Shown here: one piece after another, positions 7,524 through 26,093 of the stretch
Numbering within the stretch: position 1 is the first letter of the stretch
Layout: each line of letters opens with the position of its first letter
IMG/VR virus record: IMGVR_UViG_2547132272_000023
Strand: one strand, 5' to 3'
From: a virus
Taxonomy: Duplodnaviria > Heunggongvirae > Uroviricota > Caudoviricetes
Length of the DNA: 26,093 nucleotides
Position numbers and translations under genes: made by a program
The notes under the pieces: model-generated
Told to the model about the DNA's origin: nothing
Database searches by the model: none
Seen by the model: only the letters and a program-made list of their open reading frames with translations

Positions 7524-7726
7524 TGAAAGTGCGTGCGCATCAGTATGACACGGTGGACGCGCTTTGCTGGCGTCATTACGGGCGCACGCAGGGTGTCACG
7601 GAGCAGGTACTGAAGGCAAATCCGGGGCTTGCCGAATATGGCCCCTTTTTACCTCACGGGCTGCAGGTGGAGCTGCCGGACATTCCGACCACCACCACCG
7701 TGCAGACCGTCCAGCTATGGGACTGA
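7523..7726 (+). CDS. X: Tail protein X (P2 gpX-like)
   Basis: 67 aa, same length as P2 X; start overlaps the L stop. Confidence 0.7.
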   Translation: MKVRAHQYDTVDALCWRHYGRTQGVTEQVLKANPGLAEYGPFLPHGLQVELPDIPTTTTVQTVQLWD

Positions 7727-7729
7727 ATT

Positions 7730-7945
7730 ATGACGCTTGAGCGAATCAGCGCCTTTATCACGTATTGCATCGCCGTCGTGCTGGCCTGGCTGGGCGATTT
7801 GTCCATCAAGGATGCCTCAACGCTGGGCGGCCTGATGATTGGTGTGCTGATGCTGGCTATCAACTGGTACTACAAACACAAAGCCTACCAGCTTCTGCGC
7901 GACGGGCAGATCTCGCGGGAGGACTATGAATCCATCAATCGTTAA
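7730..7945 (+). CDS. Y: Holin (P2 gpY position)
   Basis: 71-aa protein with hydrophobic helices and a charged C-terminus, directly upstream of the endolysin gene. Confidence 0.7.
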   Translation: MTLERISAFITYCIAVVLAWLGDLSIKDASTLGGLMIGVLMLAINWYYKHKAYQLLRDGQISREDYESINR

Positions 7946-10212: not shown

Positions 10213-10230
10213 TGTATCAGCACTGATACA
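10213..10230. promoter_or_regulatory. TGT-N12-ACA dyad upstream of V; putative Ogr-dependent late promoter PV
   Basis: TGTatcagcactgatACA in the 68-bp S-V intergenic region, about 47 bp upstream of the V start codon. Confidence 0.45.
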
Positions 10231-10276: not shown

Positions 10277-10855
10277 ATGAACGCACAATTAACCGAAATC
10301 ATGCGCCTTATCACCAACCTGATCCGCACAGGGGTAGTCACCGAAGTGGACAGGGAAAACTGGCTTTGCCGGGTGAAAACGGGCGAGCTTGAAACCAACT
10401 GGATCAGCTGGCTGACGCTGCGTGCCGGGAATGCCCGTACATGGTGGCGACCATCGGAAGGTGAGCAGGTGGTGCTGCTGAGTCTGGGCGGCAATCTGGA
10501 AACCGCCTTTGCGCTGCCCGCTGTCTATTCGAATCAGTTCGCACCACCGTCGACGTCGGCGGACGCCTGCGTGACAGAACATCCTGACGGTGGCTGGTTT
10601 GAATACGAACCCGCCACCGGGCGCTGGTATGTCAGGGGCATCAAATCAATGGTCATTGAGGCTGCTGACAACATCACCATGAAAACCAGTGAGTTTGTAC
10701 TGGAGGCTGACCGCACGCGCATTAACAGCGAAGTGGTGATCAATGGTGGCGTTACCCAGGGCGGCGGAGCGATGAGTTCTAACGGGATCGTGGTTGATGC
10801 GCATCAGCATACTGGCGTCCTGAAAGGCGGCGATACAACCGGAGGCCCGGTATGA
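10277..10855 (+). CDS. V: Baseplate assembly/spike protein (P2 gpV-like)
   Basis: 192 aa, first gene after the putative PV promoter; position as P2 V. Confidence 0.75.
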   Translation: MNAQLTEIMRLITNLIRTGVVTEVDRENWLCRVKTGELETNWISWLTLRAGNARTWWRPSEGEQVVLLSLGGNLETAFALPAVYSNQFAPPSTSADACVTEHPDGGWFEYEPATGRWYVRGIKSMVIEAADNITMKTSEFVLEADRTRINSEVVINGGVTQGGGAMSSNGIVVDAHQHTGVLKGGDTTGGPV

Positions 10856-12704: not shown

Positions 12705-14128
12705 GCACAAAATTTTATACCCTGCTGACGGATATTGGCGCGGCGAAACTTGCCAGCGCCGCCGCGCTCGGTGTGCCGCTAAAAATTACCCATATGGCGG
12801 TGGGCGATGGCGGCGGAGCATTGCCGACGCCGGACGCAAAGCAGACTGCACTGGTAAATGAGAAACGCCGGGCTGCGCTGAATATGCTCTATATCGACCC
12901 GCAGAACAGCAGCCAGATTATTGCTGAACAGGTGATCCCTGAAAACGAGGGCGGTTGGTGGATACGTGAAGTGGGCCTGTTTGATGAGTCAGGGGCATTG
13001 ATTGCCGTGGGCAACTGCCCGGAAAGCTATAAACCGCAACTGGCTGAAGGCAGCGGGCGTACCCAGACCGTACGGATGGTGCTGATTACCAGCAGTACCG
13101 ATAATATCACACTGAAAATTGACCCTTCAGTGGTGCTGGCAACCCGCAAGTATGTGGATGACAAGGTGCTTGAGCTTAAGGTGTATGTGGATGACCTGAT
13201 GGCAAAGCATCTTGCTGCTGCAGATCCTCATACGCAGTATGCGCCCAAAGACAGCCCAACATTGACTGGCACGCCGAAAACGCCAACAGCACCGGCGGGA
13301 ACTAACACGACTCAGATTGCTAGCACGGCATTTGTGCAGGCGGTGGTCACTGCGCTAAATAACGCACTGGCGTTGAAAGCTCCACTGGCAAGTCCGGCCC
13401 TGACCGGAACGCCGACGGCTCCGACTGCAGCGCAGACGGCGAACAATACGCAGATTGCCACCACGGCATTTGTGAAAGCGGCAGTTGCCGAGATGGTCGG
13501 TTCATCGCCGGAGGCGCTGGATACGTTAAATGAATTGGCTGCTGCGCTGGGGAATGATCCTAACTTTGCGACAACAGTAATGAGTGCGCTGGCGGGAAAA
13601 ATGAACAAAGCAGCTAATGGCGCTGATATTGCCGATGTTTCTGCTTTTCTAAAAAACCTTCATCTTGGGGAGGGCAGTGCGTTGCCAGTCGGTGTTCCTG
13701 TTCCGTGGCCTACTGCAATACCGCCGGAAGGTTGGTTGAAGTGTAATGGAGCATCATTCAGTTCCTCGCAATATCCGAAACTGGCGCAGGTTTATCCGTC
13801 ATTAAAATTACCAGATCTACGCAGTGAGTTTATTCGCGGCTGGGACGATGGGCGTGGCGTAGACGCTGGACGTCAGGTTCTAACGTCTCAGACTGATGCT
13901 ATGCAGCCGATTATCGGCTCCATTGGCTATGGTACAAACGGTATGTTTACTTATGCTGATGGAGCTTTTACGGGTATAGATCGTGAAAGCGGAGACGGTA
14001 TTGTTACACAGGCAACAAGCATCTCACAATATAAACAGGCTCACTTAGATTCAAGTACGATAACACGAACAGCGGCAGAAACACGTCCACGGAATATTTC
14101 ATTTAATTACATTGTGAGAGCAGCATAA
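12701..14128 (+). CDS. H: Tail fibre protein (P2 gpH-like N-terminal part, exchanged C-terminal collar-type domain)
   Basis: N-terminal region including NELAAALGNDPNFATT resembles the conserved part of P2 H; C-terminal part carries a tail-collar-like segment (PVPWPTAIPPEGWLKCNG...LPDLRSEFIRGWDDGRGVDAGR) encoded by lower-GC DNA. Confidence 0.8.
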   Translation: MSTKFYTLLTDIGAAKLASAAALGVPLKITHMAVGDGGGALPTPDAKQTALVNEKRRAALNMLYIDPQNSSQIIAEQVIPENEGGWWIREVGLFDESGALIAVGNCPESYKPQLAEGSGRTQTVRMVLITSSTDNITLKIDPSVVLATRKYVDDKVLELKVYVDDLMAKHLAAADPHTQYAPKDSPTLTGTPKTPTAPAGTNTTQIASTAFVQAVVTALNNALALKAPLASPALTGTPTAPTAAQTANNTQIATTAFVKAAVAEMVGSSPEALDTLNELAAALGNDPNFATTVMSALAGKMNKAANGADIADVSAFLKNLHLGEGSALPVGVPVPWPTAIPPEGWLKCNGASFSSSQYPKLAQVYPSLKLPDLRSEFIRGWDDGRGVDAGRQVLTSQTDAMQPIIGSIGYGTNGMFTYADGAFTGIDRESGDGIVTQATSISQYKQAHLDSSTITRTAAETRPRNISFNYIVRAA

Positions 14129-14724
14129 TGACAGAAGCGAAACTAAATAATGAGTTTATAGCTGTGGAATCTGGCAATATAACGGTGTTTAACTTTGATA
14201 TTGAAACTCGTGAATATCTTTCTTCTAGTGTTGAATTTCTTGCTGTAGGGGTTGGGATTCCTGCTAATTCATGCATTGATATGCCGGGTAAAAGTAAAAA
14301 AGGGTTAACCATTTGCCGGACTAAGGATCTTACCGCGTGGGAATATATTGCTGATCATCGAGGTGAGACTGTTTACAGCACCGAAACTGGCAAAAAAATA
14401 GCTGTAACAGTGCTCGGCGATTACCCAGAAAAAACTACGAAACTACCTCCTGCTACACCATACGATAAGTGGAACGGTAGTGCATGGGTGACAGATACCG
14501 AGATGCAGCACGAGGTTGACGTGGAAACTGCTGATCAGAAGAAAGCGGAGCTTCTGGCAAAGGCTCAGCTAACAATCAATCTATGGCAGACAGAACTACA
14601 ATTAGGAATTATCAGTGATGAAGATAAAGTCAGACTAATCACCTGGATGAATTACATCAAAGCGGTGCAGTTGGTAGACACGTCAACTGCGCCAGATATA
14701 ACGTGGCCGAGGAAGCCCGAGTGA
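14128..14724 (+). CDS. G: Tail fibre assembly chaperone (P2 gpG position)
   Basis: 198 aa, start overlaps the H stop (TAATG); lower GC than the backbone, consistent with co-exchange with the H C-terminus. Confidence 0.7.
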   Translation: MTEAKLNNEFIAVESGNITVFNFDIETREYLSSSVEFLAVGVGIPANSCIDMPGKSKKGLTICRTKDLTAWEYIADHRGETVYSTETGKKIAVTVLGDYPEKTTKLPPATPYDKWNGSAWVTDTEMQHEVDVETADQKKAELLAKAQLTINLWQTELQLGIISDEDKVRLITWMNYIKAVQLVDTSTAPDITWPRKPE

Positions 14725-14809
14725 CTGAGAATTAAATGGTTAGTATCATCCTCCCCCACACTGCCTATATGGTATGAATACGAGGGGGAGGCTGTTTGTT
14801 GTCTGTTTC

Positions 14810-14818
14810 TGTGATAAT
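14810..14818 (+). promoter_or_regulatory. Putative extended -10 element (TGtGATAAT) for the acyltransferase cargo gene
   Basis: TG motif one base upstream of a GATAAT hexamer, about 35 bp upstream of ATG 14852; no good -35 hexamer. Confidence 0.3.
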
Positions 14819-14851
14819 ATTAGATTCCCGTTTTTTAATAAAAAAATCAAT

Positions 14852-15862
14852 ATGAAAGAGAATAAAATACGTTCTGCCGATGGCGTGAGAGGTTTCGCTT
14901 TGATGATTGTTGTGGTGATGCATTCTACGGGACTATTCTTTCCCTCACTTCATGATCATCTCGGAGGTACGGGGCAGCCCGGTGTTTGGTTGTTTTTTGT
15001 TCTTAGCGCCTTTTTGTTGACACATAAATTTATTAATTCTGGTTTTTCGTTTTTGAATGTGTTGAGTTATCTTTTAGGGCGAACAATAAGGATATTACCG
15101 ATTTTTTATATTGCAGTATTAATTTATTACCTTATGGGATTTTATGATTTAGAGAAAATGAAATCGATAATTTCATTTGATAGTACTTACATCCATCTCT
15201 GGACTATTCCGATAGAATTCAAGTTTTACTTTTTGTTGCCGATTGTGGTTTATCTCGCATCTAGTATCCAGAAAGTTGCAGGTAGAAAATATTCTTTGTT
15301 GTTTTTGATATTGTTAACCTTAGCGTTCGCTTTTATATACCCTTATACGGATGACGAAATCAACGGTAGGCTACCGTATTACATTCCTGTTTTTATGTAT
15401 GGAATTATAATTGCGTTTATGTATAACTATTTTCAAATTAAAATATCATCTCTCGTTAGTGATGGGGTGTCAATTGCGATTATATTAATATTTATAATGT
15501 TGACCCCTCCTTTTCAGGGGGCTAATGGTTGGCTGGGTAATAAATTTGTGGTATTGGGGCCATTTATTGCTCTCTTTGTATATCTGCAAGTAAATTCCAG
15601 TGGGTATGTAAGCGCGGTTTTATCTTCAAAAATCATGGCGGATTTGGGGAAATATAGTTTTTCAATTTATTTGTTTCATATAATGATAATTTTTATTGTT
15701 TATCCTAAATTTTTGGATAATGTTACTGCATACTTAGTTACTATAGCTTTATGTATTGGCGGTGGGGCTATTGCCTATCATTGCATTGAATCTCCCTTGG
15801 AATCGTTCAGACATAAGCTTATGAAAAGAATAACGCAGGCTTATCAGAATCAAAATATTTAA
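14852..15862 (+). CDS. Acyltransferase-3 family integral membrane protein; putative O-antigen/surface-polysaccharide acetyltransferase (lysogenic conversion cargo at the Z/fun position)
   Basis: N-terminus KIRSADGVRGFALMIVVVMH fits the conserved R...G.RG.A......H start of acyltransferase-3 proteins; about ten hydrophobic helices; strongly AT-rich; located between G and FI. Start placed at ATG 14852 rather than the track start 14774. Confidence 0.7.
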   Translation: MKENKIRSADGVRGFALMIVVVMHSTGLFFPSLHDHLGGTGQPGVWLFFVLSAFLLTHKFINSGFSFLNVLSYLLGRTIRILPIFYIAVLIYYLMGFYDLEKMKSIISFDSTYIHLWTIPIEFKFYFLLPIVVYLASSIQKVAGRKYSLLFLILLTLAFAFIYPYTDDEINGRLPYYIPVFMYGIIIAFMYNYFQIKISSLVSDGVSIAIILIFIMLTPPFQGANGWLGNKFVVLGPFIALFVYLQVNSSGYVSAVLSSKIMADLGKYSFSIYLFHIMIIFIVYPKFLDNVTAYLVTIALCIGGGAIAYHCIESPLESFRHKLMKRITQAYQNQNI

Positions 15863-15872
15863 GTAAAAGCAA

Positions 15873-15908
15873 AAAAGGCTCTCGTCAACCGACGAAGCCT
15901 TTTAAAAC
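15873..15908 (+). terminator. Rho-independent terminator downstream of the acyltransferase gene
   Basis: AAGGCTCTCGTC-aacc-GACGAAGCCTT hairpin followed by a TTTTAAAA run, 11 bp after the stop codon. Confidence 0.45.
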
Positions 15909-15996
15909 GAGTATTAATTCCCGTCCTGTAAAGTGCCCCCTATCCCAGAACAACGTTTTTAGTTATCAACGCCGTTCCGAAAATTTCCTGCGACGT

Positions 15997-16014
15997 TGTG
16001 TGATTAACCGTACA
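15997..16014. promoter_or_regulatory. TGT-N12-ACA dyad upstream of FI; putative Ogr-dependent late promoter PF
   Basis: gtTGTgtgattaaccgtACAac (extended GTTGT/ACAAC dyad) about 77 bp upstream of the FI start; AGGAGG ribosome-binding site at 16075-16080. Confidence 0.45.
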
Positions 16015-16090
16015 ACGCACATCAGCTGTCTGCATGGCGTAATCAATACAACATAGGGCGAAGCCTAATCCAATCAGGAGGTTCGCCACT

Positions 16091-17263
16091 ATGGCTCAGG
16101 ATTACCACCACGGGGTGCGCGTTGTTGAAGTCAACGAAGGCACCCGATCCATTACCACGGTGAGCACCGCCATCGTGGGTATGGTCTGCACGGGCGATGA
16201 TGCCGATGCAAAAATGTTTCCTCTTAATAAACCTGTACTGATCACTGACGTGCTGACTGCCAGCGGTAAAGCGGGTGAGTCCGGCACGCTGGCCCGTTCG
16301 CTGGATGCCATCGCTGACCAGGCAAAACCCGTGACCGTTGTTGTGCGTGTGCCGCAGGGTGAAACGGAAGAAGAAACCACGACCAATATCATCGGCGCAG
16401 TGACTGCTGAAGGTAAAAAAACAGGCATGAAAGCCCTGTTATCTGCCCAGACACAGCTCGGCGTTAAACCGCGCATTCTCGGCGTGCCAGGTCACGATAA
16501 CAAAGCCGTTGCTACTGAGTTGCTGAGTGTGGCGCAAAGCCTGCGTGGGTTTGCCTACCTGTCAGCGTATGGCTGCAAGACGGTACAGGAGGCGATCACT
16601 TACCGTGAAAATTTCAGCCAGCGCGAAGGAATGCTGATCTGGCCTGACTTTACTGGCTGGGACACGGTGCTGAATGCCGAAGCAACGGCATATGCCACCG
16701 CCCGTGCGCTTGGTCTGCGTGCCAAAATTGATGAGCAGACCGGGTGGCACAAAAGCCTGTCCAACGTGGGCGTGAACGGTGTCACCGGAATTTCTGCAGA
16801 TGTGTTCTGGGATCTGCAGGACCCGGCAACCGATGCAGGTCTGCTGAACCAGAACGACGTCACCACACTTGTGCGTAAAGACGGTTTCCGCTTCTGGGGT
16901 TCCCGCTGCCTGAGTGATGACCCGCTCTTTGCCTTCGAAAACTACACCCGCACGGCGCAGGTGCTGATGGACACGATGGCAGAAGCACACATGTGGGCGG
17001 TGGATAAACCGCTTAACCCGTCGCTGGCCCGCGACATTATCGAAGGTATCCGCGCCAAAATGCGCAGCCTGGTCAGTCAAGGCTATCTCATTGGTGGTGA
17101 TTGCTGGCTGGATGAGTCGGTGAACGACAAAGACACGCTGAAAGCCGGAAAACTCACCATCGACTATGACTACACGCCAGTGCCGCCACTTGAAAATCTG
17201 ATGCTGCGCCAGCGCATCACCGATCAGTACCTGGTGAATTTTGCCAGCCAGGTCAGCGCGTAA
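16091..17263 (+). CDS. FI: Contractile tail sheath protein (P2 gpFI-like)
   Basis: 390 aa (P2 FI about 396 aa); N-terminus [32 protein letters not shown] closely resembles the P2 FI N-terminus as recalled. Confidence 0.9.
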
Positions 17264-23018: not shown

Positions 23019-23237
23019 ATGATGATTTGCCCACTGTGTGGAAGTGCCGCCCATACTCGCAGCAGTTTTCAGGTATCTTCATTGACCAAAGAGCGTTACA
23101 ACCAGTGCCAGAACATTAACTGCAGCCATACTTTTGTTACCCATGAAACTTTTGTTCGTTCGATTGCAACGCCAAAAGAGTCAAATCCGGTTCAGCCGCA
23201 TCCAATGAAATCAGGACAGGTGGCGCTCTCTCTTTGA
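23019..23237 (+). CDS. ogr: Zinc-finger late transcription activator (P2 Ogr-like)
   Basis: ATG 23019 with GGGGAGA upstream gives 72 aa, the P2 Ogr length; Cys4 motif CPLCG-X22-CQNINC near the N-terminus. Confidence 0.8.
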   Translation: MMICPLCGSAAHTRSSFQVSSLTKERYNQCQNINCSHTFVTHETFVRSIATPKESNPVQPHPMKSGQVALSL

Positions 23238-23317
23238 CGCTGCCGCCATTTTGTCGCCATCGTTAAAAAACAGTGCTTCTAACATCATGATTTTAAACAG
23301 CTTAAATTTCAGGCAAC

Positions 23318-23360
23318 AAAAAACCCATCAACCTTGAACCGAAATGGCGGGGTTGATGGG
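23318..23360 (-). terminator. Rho-independent terminator of ybjL (hairpin plus U-tract on the minus strand)
   Basis: CCCATCAACC (23324-23333) pairs with GGTTGATGGG (23351-23360); on the minus strand the hairpin is followed by TTTTTTGT. The 17-nt loop is rather large. Confidence 0.4.
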
Positions 23361-23472
23361 CTCCACAAAATGGGGACATCAAAGAAAAGCAGTGGCACTA
23401 ATTAAGACTGATGCCCCGAGGAAAAGTTCTGCGGTTGTACAAAAAAATTTCATTTTTGGGGCAACTTCAGTT

Positions 23473-25158
23473 TTATCCGAGTCCTGGCCATACCATTACG
23501 ATGATTGTCCCTGCCAGCGTCAGCAGTACGTTAGCTATTGCATAAGTGCCCGCATAACCTAAGGCCGGGATGTTGCTGCGCGCAGTGTCGCTGATGATCT
23601 CCATTGCCGGAGCACAAGTACGTGCGCCCATCATTGCACCGAATAACAGCGCGCGGTTCATGCGCAGCACATAAGCGCCAAACAGGAAGCAAATAACAAC
23701 GGGCACCAGGCTGACAATTAACCCGGCAATCAACATCTGACCGCCAATCGCACCCAGGCCGTTATTGATGCCACTACCGGCGCTTAAACCCACGCCCGCC
23801 ATAAATACCATCAAACCGAACTCTTTCACCATGCTTAACGCGCCCTGGGGAATATAGCCGAAGGTCGGGTGGTTCGCTCGCATAAAGCCCAGCATAATAC
23901 CAGCGAATAACAATCCGGCGGCGTTACCCATGCCGAAGCTGAATGTGCTGAACTGGAAGGTGATCATCCCGATCATCAGACCGATGACAAAGAACGCGCA
24001 GAATGCCAGTAGATCGGTAACCTGGCTGTGAATCGAGATAAAGCCGATGCGATCGGCGATGGTTTTCACGCGACGGGCATCGCCGCTCACCTGCAATACA
24101 TCGCCTTTATTAAGCACCACGTTATCGTCGATCGGCATTTCGATCTGGCTGCGGATGACGCGGTTAAGGAAACAACCGTGATCGGTCAGCTTCAGTTGTG
24201 CCAGGCGTTTACCGACAGCGTTATGGTTTTTGACGACCACCTCTTCAGTGACGATACGCATGTCGAGAAGATCTCGATCAAAAACTTCTTTACCGTTACG
24301 GAAGCTGGGATCGAGTCGGGCGTGGGCGTCGGGATATCCTACCAACGCTATTTCATCGCCCATCTGTAGCACGGCGTCACCATCCGGATTTGCCAGAATC
24401 CCGTTACGACGAATACGTTCAATGTAGCAACCGGTTTGTCGATAAATACCCAGTTCGCGCAAGTTTTTGCCATCGGCCCAGGCGACCAGTTCCGGCCCGA
24501 CGCGGTAGGCGCGAATGACCGGCAGATAGACTTTACGGCTGGCGTCGGTATCCAGACCCCGTTCACGAGCGATTTGTTGGGCGCTGGTTTGTAAGTCCTG
24601 ATGCTGCAACTTAGGCAAGTAACGCGCACCGACAATCAAACTCACCAGGCCAATCAAATAGGTTAATGCATACCCGAGGCTTAAATTATCCAGTGCCGCA
24701 GAGAGCTGCCCGCTTTCTATTCCTGAGTGGCGTAAGGTATCGCCCGCACCAACCAAAACCGGTGTTGATGTCATTGAACCAGCCAACATACCGGCCGTCA
24801 GGCCGATGTCCCAGCCAAACAACTTACCCAGTCCTAAGGCGATCAGCAGTGCACTACCGACCATTACCAGGGCTAACATTAGGTAATTTTTCCCATCGCG
24901 GAAAAAAATGGAAAAAAAGTTGGGTCCGGCTTCGACCCCGACGCAGAAAATAAACAGCATAAAGCCAAGATTAAGCGCGTCGGTGTTAATACTGAAATGT
25001 TGTTGACCTAATAACAGTGATACGACTAAAACGCCAATGGAATTACCCAGTTGGATTGAACCAAGTCGTAATTTTCCGAGACATAGTCCAAGCGCGAGGA
25101 CCACGAATAATAACAGAATGTAATTCCCATTTAACAATTCGGCGACGTTTATATTCAC
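23473..25158 (-). CDS. ybjL: Putative transporter of the AspT/YidE/YbjL family (host chromosomal gene)
   Basis: 561 aa, two hydrophobic transporter halves separated by a soluble central region; N-terminus [29 protein letters not shown] recognised as E. coli YbjL from memory; lies next to ybjM and grxA as in E. coli K-12. Confidence 0.8.
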
Positions 25159-25426
25159 GGAGACTAACTTCTTGTTTACGAGTAAGCTGTTGAAAGAAAT
25201 GGTAATTTAAGATAATGTTTTTACCTGAATTCAGAGCGCAGATTCATTCAGCGCACTTAATCAATAGTAAAGTAACAATATATTTTACTAGTGTAATCAC
25301 ATTAGATACCAACGGCTATAAGAATTGTGTTGGCCTATATTAGCATGGAATGCGAAGCGGCTTTATCTTACTGAGCGCCACACCGGCGAAAAATGTGTTC
25401 GATAGAGGCAGTGTCAGGAGGAACAT

Positions 25427-25804
25427 GTGAAACATAAACAACATTGGGCGGGGGCAATTTGCTGTTTTGTCCTCTTTATTGTGGTGTGCCTTTTTCTGGC
25501 GACACATATGAAGGGAGCTTTTCGGGCTGCCGGGCACCCTGAAATCGGCTTACTGTTTTTCATTCTTCCTGGGGCTGTAGCCAGCTTTTTTTCGCGGCGT
25601 AGAGAAGTCCTTAAACCACTGTTTGGCGCAATGCTGGCAGCACCGTGTTCTATGTTAATTATGCGTCTGTTTTTTTCACCATCACGCTCATTCTGGCAGG
25701 AGCTGGCGTGGTTGTTGAGTGCCGTCTTCTGGTGTGCGCTGGGCGCATTATGTTTTTTGTTTATCAGTAGCTTGTTCAGGCCGCAACACAGAAAAAATCA
25801 ATAA
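25427..25804 (+). CDS. ybjM: Inner membrane protein YbjM (host)
   Basis: 125-aa hydrophobic protein between ybjL and grxA, the K-12 arrangement. Confidence 0.65.
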   Translation: MKHKQHWAGAICCFVLFIVVCLFLATHMKGAFRAAGHPEIGLLFFILPGAVASFFSRRREVLKPLFGAMLAAPCSMLIMRLFFSPSRSFWQELAWLLSAVFWCALGALCFLFISSLFRPQHRKNQ

Positions 25805-25826
25805 AGCCCTCAAACAGAGAGGGCTT
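25804..25826. terminator. Bidirectional terminator hairpin between convergent ybjM and grxA
   Basis: AAGCCCTC-aaacaga-GAGGGCTT stem-loop between the two stop codons. Confidence 0.4.
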
Positions 25827-25835
25827 ATCCGGTAA

Positions 25836-26093
25836 TCAGGCGTCAAGATTCTCTTTCACCCAGGCAGCAAAATCGGTATAGCCACCGATGTGTTGCTGAT
25901 CGACAAAAATCTGCGGTACGGTTTCTACCGGCTTGCCAGCTTTCTGTTGCAGATCCTCTTTAGTGATCCCTTCAGTACGAATATCCACATACTGATAGTG
26001 AAAATCATCGTGTTCATTACTTAACTTTTCTGCCAAATCTTTGGCACGCACGCAGTAAGGGCAACCCGGACGACCGAAAATAACGGTTTGCAT
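25836..26093 (-). CDS. grxA: Glutaredoxin 1 (host)
   Basis: 85 aa with the CPYC active site (GRPGCPYCVRAK); the start codon coincides with the last base of the window. Confidence 0.85.
   Translation of the reverse strand: MQTVIFGRPGCPYCVRAKDLAEKLSNEHDDFHYQYVDIRTEGITKEDLQQKAGKPVETVPQIFVDQQHIGGYTDFAAWVKENLDA

Follow-up and report, generated by a model that had tools for sequence, protein, structure and literature searches.

A candidate envelope-glycan O-acyltransferase gene carried between tail genes G and FI of a P2-like Escherichia prophage

The viral sequence IMGVR_UViG_2547132272_000023 of IMG/VR, analyzed here over its whole 26,093 nucleotides (the window), contains a P2-like prophage in which a stand-alone acyltransferase-3 (AT3) gene lies between the tail fiber assembly gene G and the tail sheath gene FI, at 14852–15862 on the plus strand. 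Our analysis makes it near-certain that this gene is a piece of prophage cargo encoding a functional O-acyltransferase of the AT3 family. We further propose, with a probability of roughly 0.6, that it is a moron for the O-acylation of an envelope glycan, likeliest the O-antigen of lipopolysaccharide (LPS) or an LPS-linked receptor glycan, and that it serves functional lysogenic conversion. The family membership of the gene, its intactness, the purifying selection on it, its foreign composition, its position and its conserved flanking elements are established.

Results

The encoded protein matches the Pfam family PF01757 (Acyl_transf_3) over its full length (E 9.1e-27; 94.4 bits against a cut-off of 31; profile positions 3–324 of 326), and it also matches PHROG 3333, "O-acetyltransferase" (E 9.4e-42). 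An AlphaFold2 model built with 45 relatives (predicted local distance difference test 91.9; predicted TM-score 0.90) has ten long helices, at residues 7–29, 42–63, 67–94, 114–143, 145–162, 174–194, 200–216, 232–248, 269–286 and 291–335, and the hydropathy peaks agree with them. The reading of the gene as an AT3 multi-pass membrane protein, made in a first-pass annotation of the window from its letters alone, is thus confirmed. The protein stops after helix 10 and has, by Pfam, no second domain and no SGNH domain, which makes its architecture stand-alone. Seven residues are invariant among the 45 relatives: R13, H24, R77, R80, W117, T118 and E122. Of these, R13-X10-H24 and R77-T-I-R80 align with motifs of the O-antigen acetylase Oac; R/K-X10-H, in the first transmembrane helix, and RxxR are the motifs rated essential in a review of AT3 enzymes, for OafA/OafB and Oac (PMC9558356).

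A sequence search of the PDB with the protein found no relative, and the best match of the model among solved structures was human HGSNAT (probability 1.0, TM-score about 0.5). HGSNAT is a transmembrane glycan acetyltransferase that depends on acetyl-CoA, whose acetyl group it carries across the membrane onto the glycan, and it has recently been joined with AT3 enzymes in a "TmAT" superfamily (PMC12423673).

The open reading frame (ORF) is intact and was called from 14774 to 15862 on the plus strand. Its first 26 codons are an extension shared by the window and its nearest relative only, and there the two diverge like noncoding DNA; in an alignment with 19 relatives, all homologues begin at the methionine of MKENK. 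We therefore rejected the long start and place the start of the gene at the ATG at 14852, which gives a protein of 336 amino acids. Compared with three copies at synonymous divergences (dS) of 0.13, 0.50 and 1.39, the ratio of nonsynonymous to synonymous change (dN/dS) is 0.11, 0.10 and 0.09, respectively. A dN/dS of about 0.1 implies that the gene is functional and its protein under purifying selection. An identical protein stands in RefSeq as WP_071988060.1, "acyltransferase [Escherichia]", so a generic acyltransferase annotation is already public.

The prophage is of the phi-b0847 type and adjoins ybjL. Its genes run in the order Q, P, O, N, M, L, lysis genes, V, W, J, I, H, G, acyltransferase, FI, FII, E/E', T, U, D and ogr, after which come the chromosomal genes ybjL, ybjM and grxA. 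Pfam matches identify the left flank of the slot as G (14128–14724, plus strand; Caudo_TAP, 198 amino acids) and the right flank as FI (16091–17263, plus strand). P2 fills this slot with fun(Z), which lies on the opposite strand and is annotated as blocking the growth of T5. The GC content of the AT3 gene is 0.34 (also 0.34 at third codon positions, GC3), compared with 0.43 in G, 0.56 in FI (GC3 0.63), about 55% in its flanks and 0.52 in the window as a whole. The earlier description of an AT-rich gene in the P2 Z/fun slot is therefore accurate.

The edges of the insertion are visible because the gene is missing from prophages that are otherwise 96–98% identical, with breakpoints at 14511 and 15995/15996. 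In a comparison with CUPF06, the E. coli prophage nearest to it (97.8% identical over the rest), the window is 94% identical as far as 13343, 72% across the C-terminal half of H (breakpoint 13343/13358) and 68% across G; positions 14511 to 15995 do not align, and identity returns at 96% from 15996, two bases ahead of the activator site of the late promoter P_F at 15997. The right edge of the insert is thus 15995/15996, with homology to the gene-less prophages resuming from 15996. The divergent C-terminal half of the tail fiber gene H (13344–14128, plus strand; Pfam Collar domain) marks the start of a mosaic block that travels with the acyltransferase. G is likewise co-inherited with the AT3 gene, the two having neighboring accession numbers in several genomes. 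In CUPF06 the slot itself (14804–16722 of locus L025) contains an inverted second fiber-tip/chaperone pair and a recombinase; this filling looks like an invertible host-range switch, not a cargo gene.

Of the 5426 complete E. coli genomes, about 700 contain prophages to which the backbone of this one is 96–98% identical. The chromosomal flank at 23200–26093 (ybjL, ybjM, grxA) shares only about 90% identity with E. coli, and a YbjL sequence identical to that of the window is recorded under Escherichia marmotae, which is probably the host. The difference between the identity of the flank and that of the prophage implies that the phage crossed between Escherichia species recently, relative to the divergence of the hosts. 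The other cargo slot of P2, upstream of the portal gene Q and occupied there by old/tin, is also filled in the window: a gene at 1–1410 on the plus strand matches the PADLOC anti-phage defense protein PD-T7-1 over its full length (E 3.5e-196). It has no Pfam match, and its E. coli relative is hypothetical in RefSeq.

We compared the flanking elements of the acyltransferase locus across five copies that differ by up to 22% in DNA sequence. An upstream hairpin, an extended -10 element and a terminator hairpin are common to all five. The -10 element, TGaTAATAT, occupies 14812–14820 on the plus strand, and its TG-n-TAATAT pattern, invariant in the five diverged copies, occurs twice in the window against 0.56 expected; it constitutes a predicted promoter, a conserved extended -10 match without a -35. 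The first-pass annotation had put an extended -10 promoter at 14810–14818. The sequence on which it relied, TGTGATAAT, is present there as stated and overlaps the conserved element, but the invariant register is 14812–14820 and a sigma-70 scan gives matches at chance level. The downstream terminator, proposed earlier at 15873–15908, fared better. The hairpin at 15873–15903 is of the bidirectional type, with an A-run upstream and a T-run downstream, and folds at -16.5 kcal/mol on both strands (z -4.7 on the plus strand, with 0 of 200 shuffles equally stable, and -3.0 on the minus strand); its stem is kept by paired changes in two diverged copies, L006 and L007. The U-run of the plus strand is just 4 long, and the scan detected the terminator on the minus strand.

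The third element, a hairpin at 14750–14791 on the plus strand (CCTCCCCC...GGGGGAGG) followed by a T-rich stretch, precedes the -10 element. In L006 and L007 an 8-bp stem persists although its sequence differs. The fold, at -19.9 kcal/mol, is no better than that of shuffled sequences (z -0.8), and the U tract is interrupted; we therefore rejected the hairpin as a terminator and retained it as a conserved element, which may weakly terminate or attenuate transcription of the V operon.

That operon matters for the expression of the acyltransferase. The TGT-N12-ACA motif is known as the activator site of the late promoters of P2. A pattern search for it found Ogr-type sites upstream of V (P_V, 10213–10230, plus strand; V starts at 10277), before FI (P_F, 15997–16014, plus strand) and in the P/O intergenic region (4247 and 4305), an arrangement that mirrors the P2 late promoters. 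The P2 annotation marks the P_F activator site, and the spacing of the window's site to the FI ATG (16091) resembles that in P2. The P_V transcript runs towards G and the acyltransferase gene, which lies on the same strand, 128 bp downstream of G and directly after the P_V-driven V-W-J-I-H-G operon, and the sole strong terminator of the unit is 3' of the AT3 gene. Because the gene is co-oriented with the V operon and directly downstream of it, late read-through is likely, and both lysogenic and late expression seem plausible from this layout. The earlier statement that the gene is expressed independently of the Ogr-driven late operons was too strong, given the position of the gene directly behind the P_V operon and a non-canonical hairpin in between; since the gene sits in the V transcription unit, an expression purely independent of the late program is doubtful.

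The gene is rare. Near-identical copies occur in four IMG/VR prophage contigs and in a few drafts from E. coli, C. freundii and Escherichia sp.; carriers of WP_071988060-like genes include E. coli UMEA 3148-1, Citrobacter freundii, Escherichia sp. E4208 and E. marmotae. A search of the 5426 complete E. coli genomes found no copy, although DNA stringency was set low. A tblastn search of 50,697 phage records gave a single substantial match, a 40% identical relative in the P22-like phage vB_EcoP-611R6; the others, two from Arthrobacter and one from Staphylococcus, are weak (22–23% identity, E about 1e-6). A scan of species-representative genomes returned just unrelated matches of 26–28% in marine metagenome-assembled genomes (MAGs), which carry no information on host or context.

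Copies that are 79–97% identical, including a group of near-identical prophages, occupy the same G/FI slot. A 90% identical copy is found behind a different fiber in a P2-like prophage of Silvania (locus L005; sp. MAG contig JBOFEK010000029.1). Just upstream of that copy, at 7629–7868, lies a relic of the start of FI fused to a relic of G: the first, of 55 nucleotides, is 98% identical to 16093–16147 of the window and has lost the ATG, and the second consists of the last ~180 nucleotides of a window-type G. These relics are a footprint of transfer: the cassette came in from a window-like phage through two crossovers, one of them illegitimate and the other homologous. A different kind of trace is seen in an Enterobacter asburiae prophage remnant (L006, 3977–8963 of JBBBXI010000012.1), in which the genes for head and replication and most of those for the tail are gone. 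Still present are int, the repressor, a fiber fragment, G, an intact acyltransferase of 333 amino acids, the P_F region together with the opening codons of FI, and D and ogr. The remnant's block of H C-terminus, G, acyltransferase and P_F is collinear with 13664–16497 of the window at 78% identity. This suggests that the cargo gene was retained by selection after the phage had decayed.

More distant relatives are found at comparable places in other phages. A 70% identical relative comes after the tail-fiber chaperone (Caudo_TAP) of an unrelated myovirus prophage; relatives of 40–43% lie directly 3' of the tailspike gene, the position of oac in Sf6, in P22-like E. coli prophages at argW and in phage 611R6; and a 39% relative in Pseudomonas follows a Caudo_TAP gene in a tail-fiber-assembly/lysis cluster. 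Among the immediate neighbors at 44 IMG/VR loci we counted Caudo_TAP 5 times, Head_binding 3, Tail_spike_N 3+1, Gly_rich_2 7+1, Gp53-like_C 4 and sheath genes 4. At these loci the GC content of the acyltransferase is mostly well under that of its surroundings, the gap shrinking to just 0.01–0.04 at a few loci of high GC. In Yersinia enterocolitica (L022, 9001–10436), a 38% relative on an island beside smpB overlaps by 4 nucleotides a downstream gene with a SASA domain, that is, a sialate O-acetylesterase, which is SGNH-like. A separate gene of the GDSL/SGNH/SASA esterase fold adjoins 3–5 of the 44 IMG/VR loci, and such pairs may be split versions of fused AT3-SGNH enzymes.

To place the subfamily among characterized enzymes, its profile was scored against each of them. 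The highest score went to an O-antigen acetylase, OacB of Sf101 (53 bits), followed by E. coli WecH (32 bits), Sf6 Oac (16), phiV10 Oac (11), OpgC (4.5) and NeaT of CFT073 (1.7). The best pairwise identity of the window protein to OacB, WecH and Oac is 22–25%, so the substrate cannot be transferred by homology.

Discussion

From these observations we infer the donor, the acceptor, the timing of expression and the phenotype as follows. The enzyme would take up an acyl group, likeliest acetyl from acetyl-CoA, on the cytoplasmic side; the group would pass through a pore lined by R13, H24, R77, R80 and E122; and a sugar of an envelope glycan would be esterified at the periplasmic face. Knowledge of the family, together with the HGSNAT-like fold, makes it likely that an extracytoplasmic envelope glycan is acylated in this way at the expense of cytoplasmic acyl-CoA. 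The likeliest target would be the LPS O-antigen or another LPS-linked glycan that serves phages as a receptor, and the outcome in the lysogen would be a changed surface antigen and changed phage adsorption; superinfection exclusion is a plausible consequence. The predicted extended -10 promoter of the gene is probably active in the lysogen, and its position at the 3' end of the late V-W-J-I-H-G unit means that the product may also be made late in lytic growth. The gene has been inherited with a particular fiber tip (the H C-terminus) and the chaperone G, and can move between P2-like phages as a cassette.

O-antigen as the acceptor is suggested by context, since relatives stand beside tailspike, tail-fiber or chaperone genes in several types of phage, and this recurrent placement beside receptor-binding genes, with the top score of OacB, brings the odds that the acceptor is O-antigen or another phage-receptor glycan to about even. 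They would be higher but for the lack of orthology, the second place of WecH and the experience with NeaT. Several further points weigh against the overall proposal. NCBIfam yielded no match to the protein and hence no equivalog, several relatives are orphan chromosomal genes outside prophages, and no O-antigen or capsule cluster contains any of the relatives that we examined. The promoter activity of 14812–14820 is a prediction, and the generic sigma-70 scan missed this conserved element. Finally, the fiber of P2 binds the LPS core, not O-antigen, and the fiber tip of the present prophage is at most 58% identical to other P2-like tips. To our knowledge none of the matching tips comes from a phage whose receptor has been described; we therefore abandoned the fiber tip as a guide to the receptor.

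The strongest competing explanation, possible although we consider it somewhat unlikely, keeps the enzyme and changes its acceptor and benefit. Enterobacterial common antigen (ECA), capsule or colanic acid, osmoregulated periplasmic glucans or peptidoglycan would be acylated, and the gain would be to the host, through aggregation, immune evasion or virulence, and not through the exclusion of phages. The glycans acted on by AT3 enzymes are indeed many (PMC9558356); the second-best characterized match, WecH, at 25% identity, is an ECA acetylase; and there are the orphan chromosomal relatives. A further argument comes from neaT (c0970) of E. coli CFT073, a PF01757 gene of 30% GC that occupies the same slot (Wiles et al., 2013; PMC3573123). 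neaT is expressed in culture and is needed for full virulence in zebrafish and in mouse bacteraemia, and it alters aggregation, curli and cellulose; no LPS phenotype was reported and no substrate was identified (PMC3573123). What speaks for a receptor glycan instead is that the subfamily repeatedly adjoins tailspike, fiber or chaperone genes, that OacB scores highest, and that the scores of OpgC and NeaT are at noise level.

A second alternative accepts a receptor glycan and changes the timing. The gene would be mainly a late gene, expressed by read-through from P_V, and would acylate, on the dying cell, the receptor of the phage itself, which would spare the progeny from being lost to debris or infected neighbors. 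The layout is compatible with this: the gene follows G closely on the same strand inside the P_V unit, the intervening hairpin is weak as a terminator, the strong terminator is found only past the gene, and one type of fiber tip and chaperone is co-inherited with it. Against it stand the conserved -10 element between the hairpin and the gene, the intact copy in the Enterobacter asburiae remnant, which is incapable of making virions, and the Silvania copy behind a different fiber; moreover, we know of no precedent for protection from debris by an AT3 enzyme. We consider it very unlikely as the main role. That the gene does the work of P2 Z/fun, excluding T5-like phages by an intracellular route, or is an inert passenger is hardly credible: the analogy has the shared genomic slot in its favor, whereas the protein has no similarity to Fun(Z) (E 0.39, on which homology was rejected), differs from it in size, strand and predicted location and matches none of the PADLOC defense models, and the dN/dS of about 0.1 and the invariant catalytic motifs argue against a passenger.

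Our preferred reading, a lysogenic-conversion enzyme that acts on a receptor glycan, can be extended into a more speculative scheme, which we offer tentatively and think unlikely to hold in all its parts. The H C-terminus, G and the acyltransferase might form a mobile "bind-and-mask" cassette, in which the enzyme acylates the very glycan that its co-inherited fiber recognizes. In the lysogen its own promoter would provide self-exclusion and antigen change; late expression, from its place at the end of the V operon, would keep progeny off debris. Such cassettes would spread between P2-like phages by recombination anchored in FI, and the G/FI slot would be one in which unrelated AT3 genes, the window gene and neaT, have landed convergently.

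If the acceptor is O-antigen or a receptor glycan, the prophage alters the serotype and the phage susceptibility of its Escherichia host, with consequences for serotyping, for the selection of phages in therapy and for recognition by the immune system. As cargo, a lysogenic-conversion acyltransferase is ordinary and conceptually not new, and a different AT3 gene, neaT, is already known at the same slot. The chief points of interest are that unrelated AT3 genes have converged on the G/FI slot, and that a fiber-tip, chaperone and acyltransferase cassette travels together and has left a visible footprint of transfer.

Among the closest known systems are the seroconverting enzymes Sf6 Oac, Sf101 OacB and phiV10 Oac. 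Like the window gene they are stand-alone, encoded by temperate phages and placed beside a receptor-binding gene, although the proteins are only 22–24% identical to that of the window (E 5e-9 to 3.6), and they belong to tailspike podoviruses where ours belongs to a P2-like myovirus with fibers. Sf6 oac is annotated as an O-antigen acetylase, and the record of phiV10 oac adds that it "functions in superinfection immunity"; the first-pass annotation was right to name phage-borne O-antigen acetylases as the precedent, since both genes are so annotated and both lie beside receptor-binding genes; it overlooked neaT and the existing RefSeq entry of the protein. Two further leads from phages were set aside. 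In Kapi1, an acyltransferase-like gene, hyp24, lies between the tailspike gene and the integrase, and neither its deletion nor its overexpression changed the LPS ladder (PMC8787464); this lead was dropped, as the tblastn search of phage records gave no match in Kapi1 and the case is uninformative on the present subfamily. In SPC-P1, a prophage ORF with low similarity to AT3 is described, with no substrate given (PMC3022927).

WecH resembles the window protein in being a stand-alone AT3 enzyme of the same size, 25% identical, but it is the product of a housekeeping gene of the chromosome. Among solved structures HGSNAT has the closest fold, yet it is eukaryotic and only 14% identical, with a TM-score of about 0.5. 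P2 Fun(Z) shares the G/FI slot and is likewise a non-essential, AT-rich conversion gene; its product, however, is an unrelated protein of 528 amino acids, encoded in the opposite orientation, and the phenotype it confers is blocked growth of T5.

NeaT is a direct precedent. In the record of CFT073, the architecture of the prophage and its junction with ybjL (b0847) are the same as in the window. The two AT3 genes share the G/FI slot, the prophage type, the PF01757 family, a length of about 340 amino acids and a very AT-rich composition (30% GC in neaT, 34% here). Both are also rare, neaT being present in 9 of the 5426 complete E. coli genomes and the window gene in 0. They differ in orientation, neaT lying on the opposite strand and overlapping the end of G. 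The proteins themselves have no significant similarity by BLASTP (E 0.18), in line with the 1.7 bits of NeaT in the subfamily profile. The lack of detectable similarity and the opposite strands imply two independent acquisitions of an AT3 gene at one hot spot. Because two unrelated AT3 genes occupy one slot, and one of them, neaT, is a proven fitness factor in bacteraemia, surface acylation appears to be a recurrent and selected cargo of P2-like phages.

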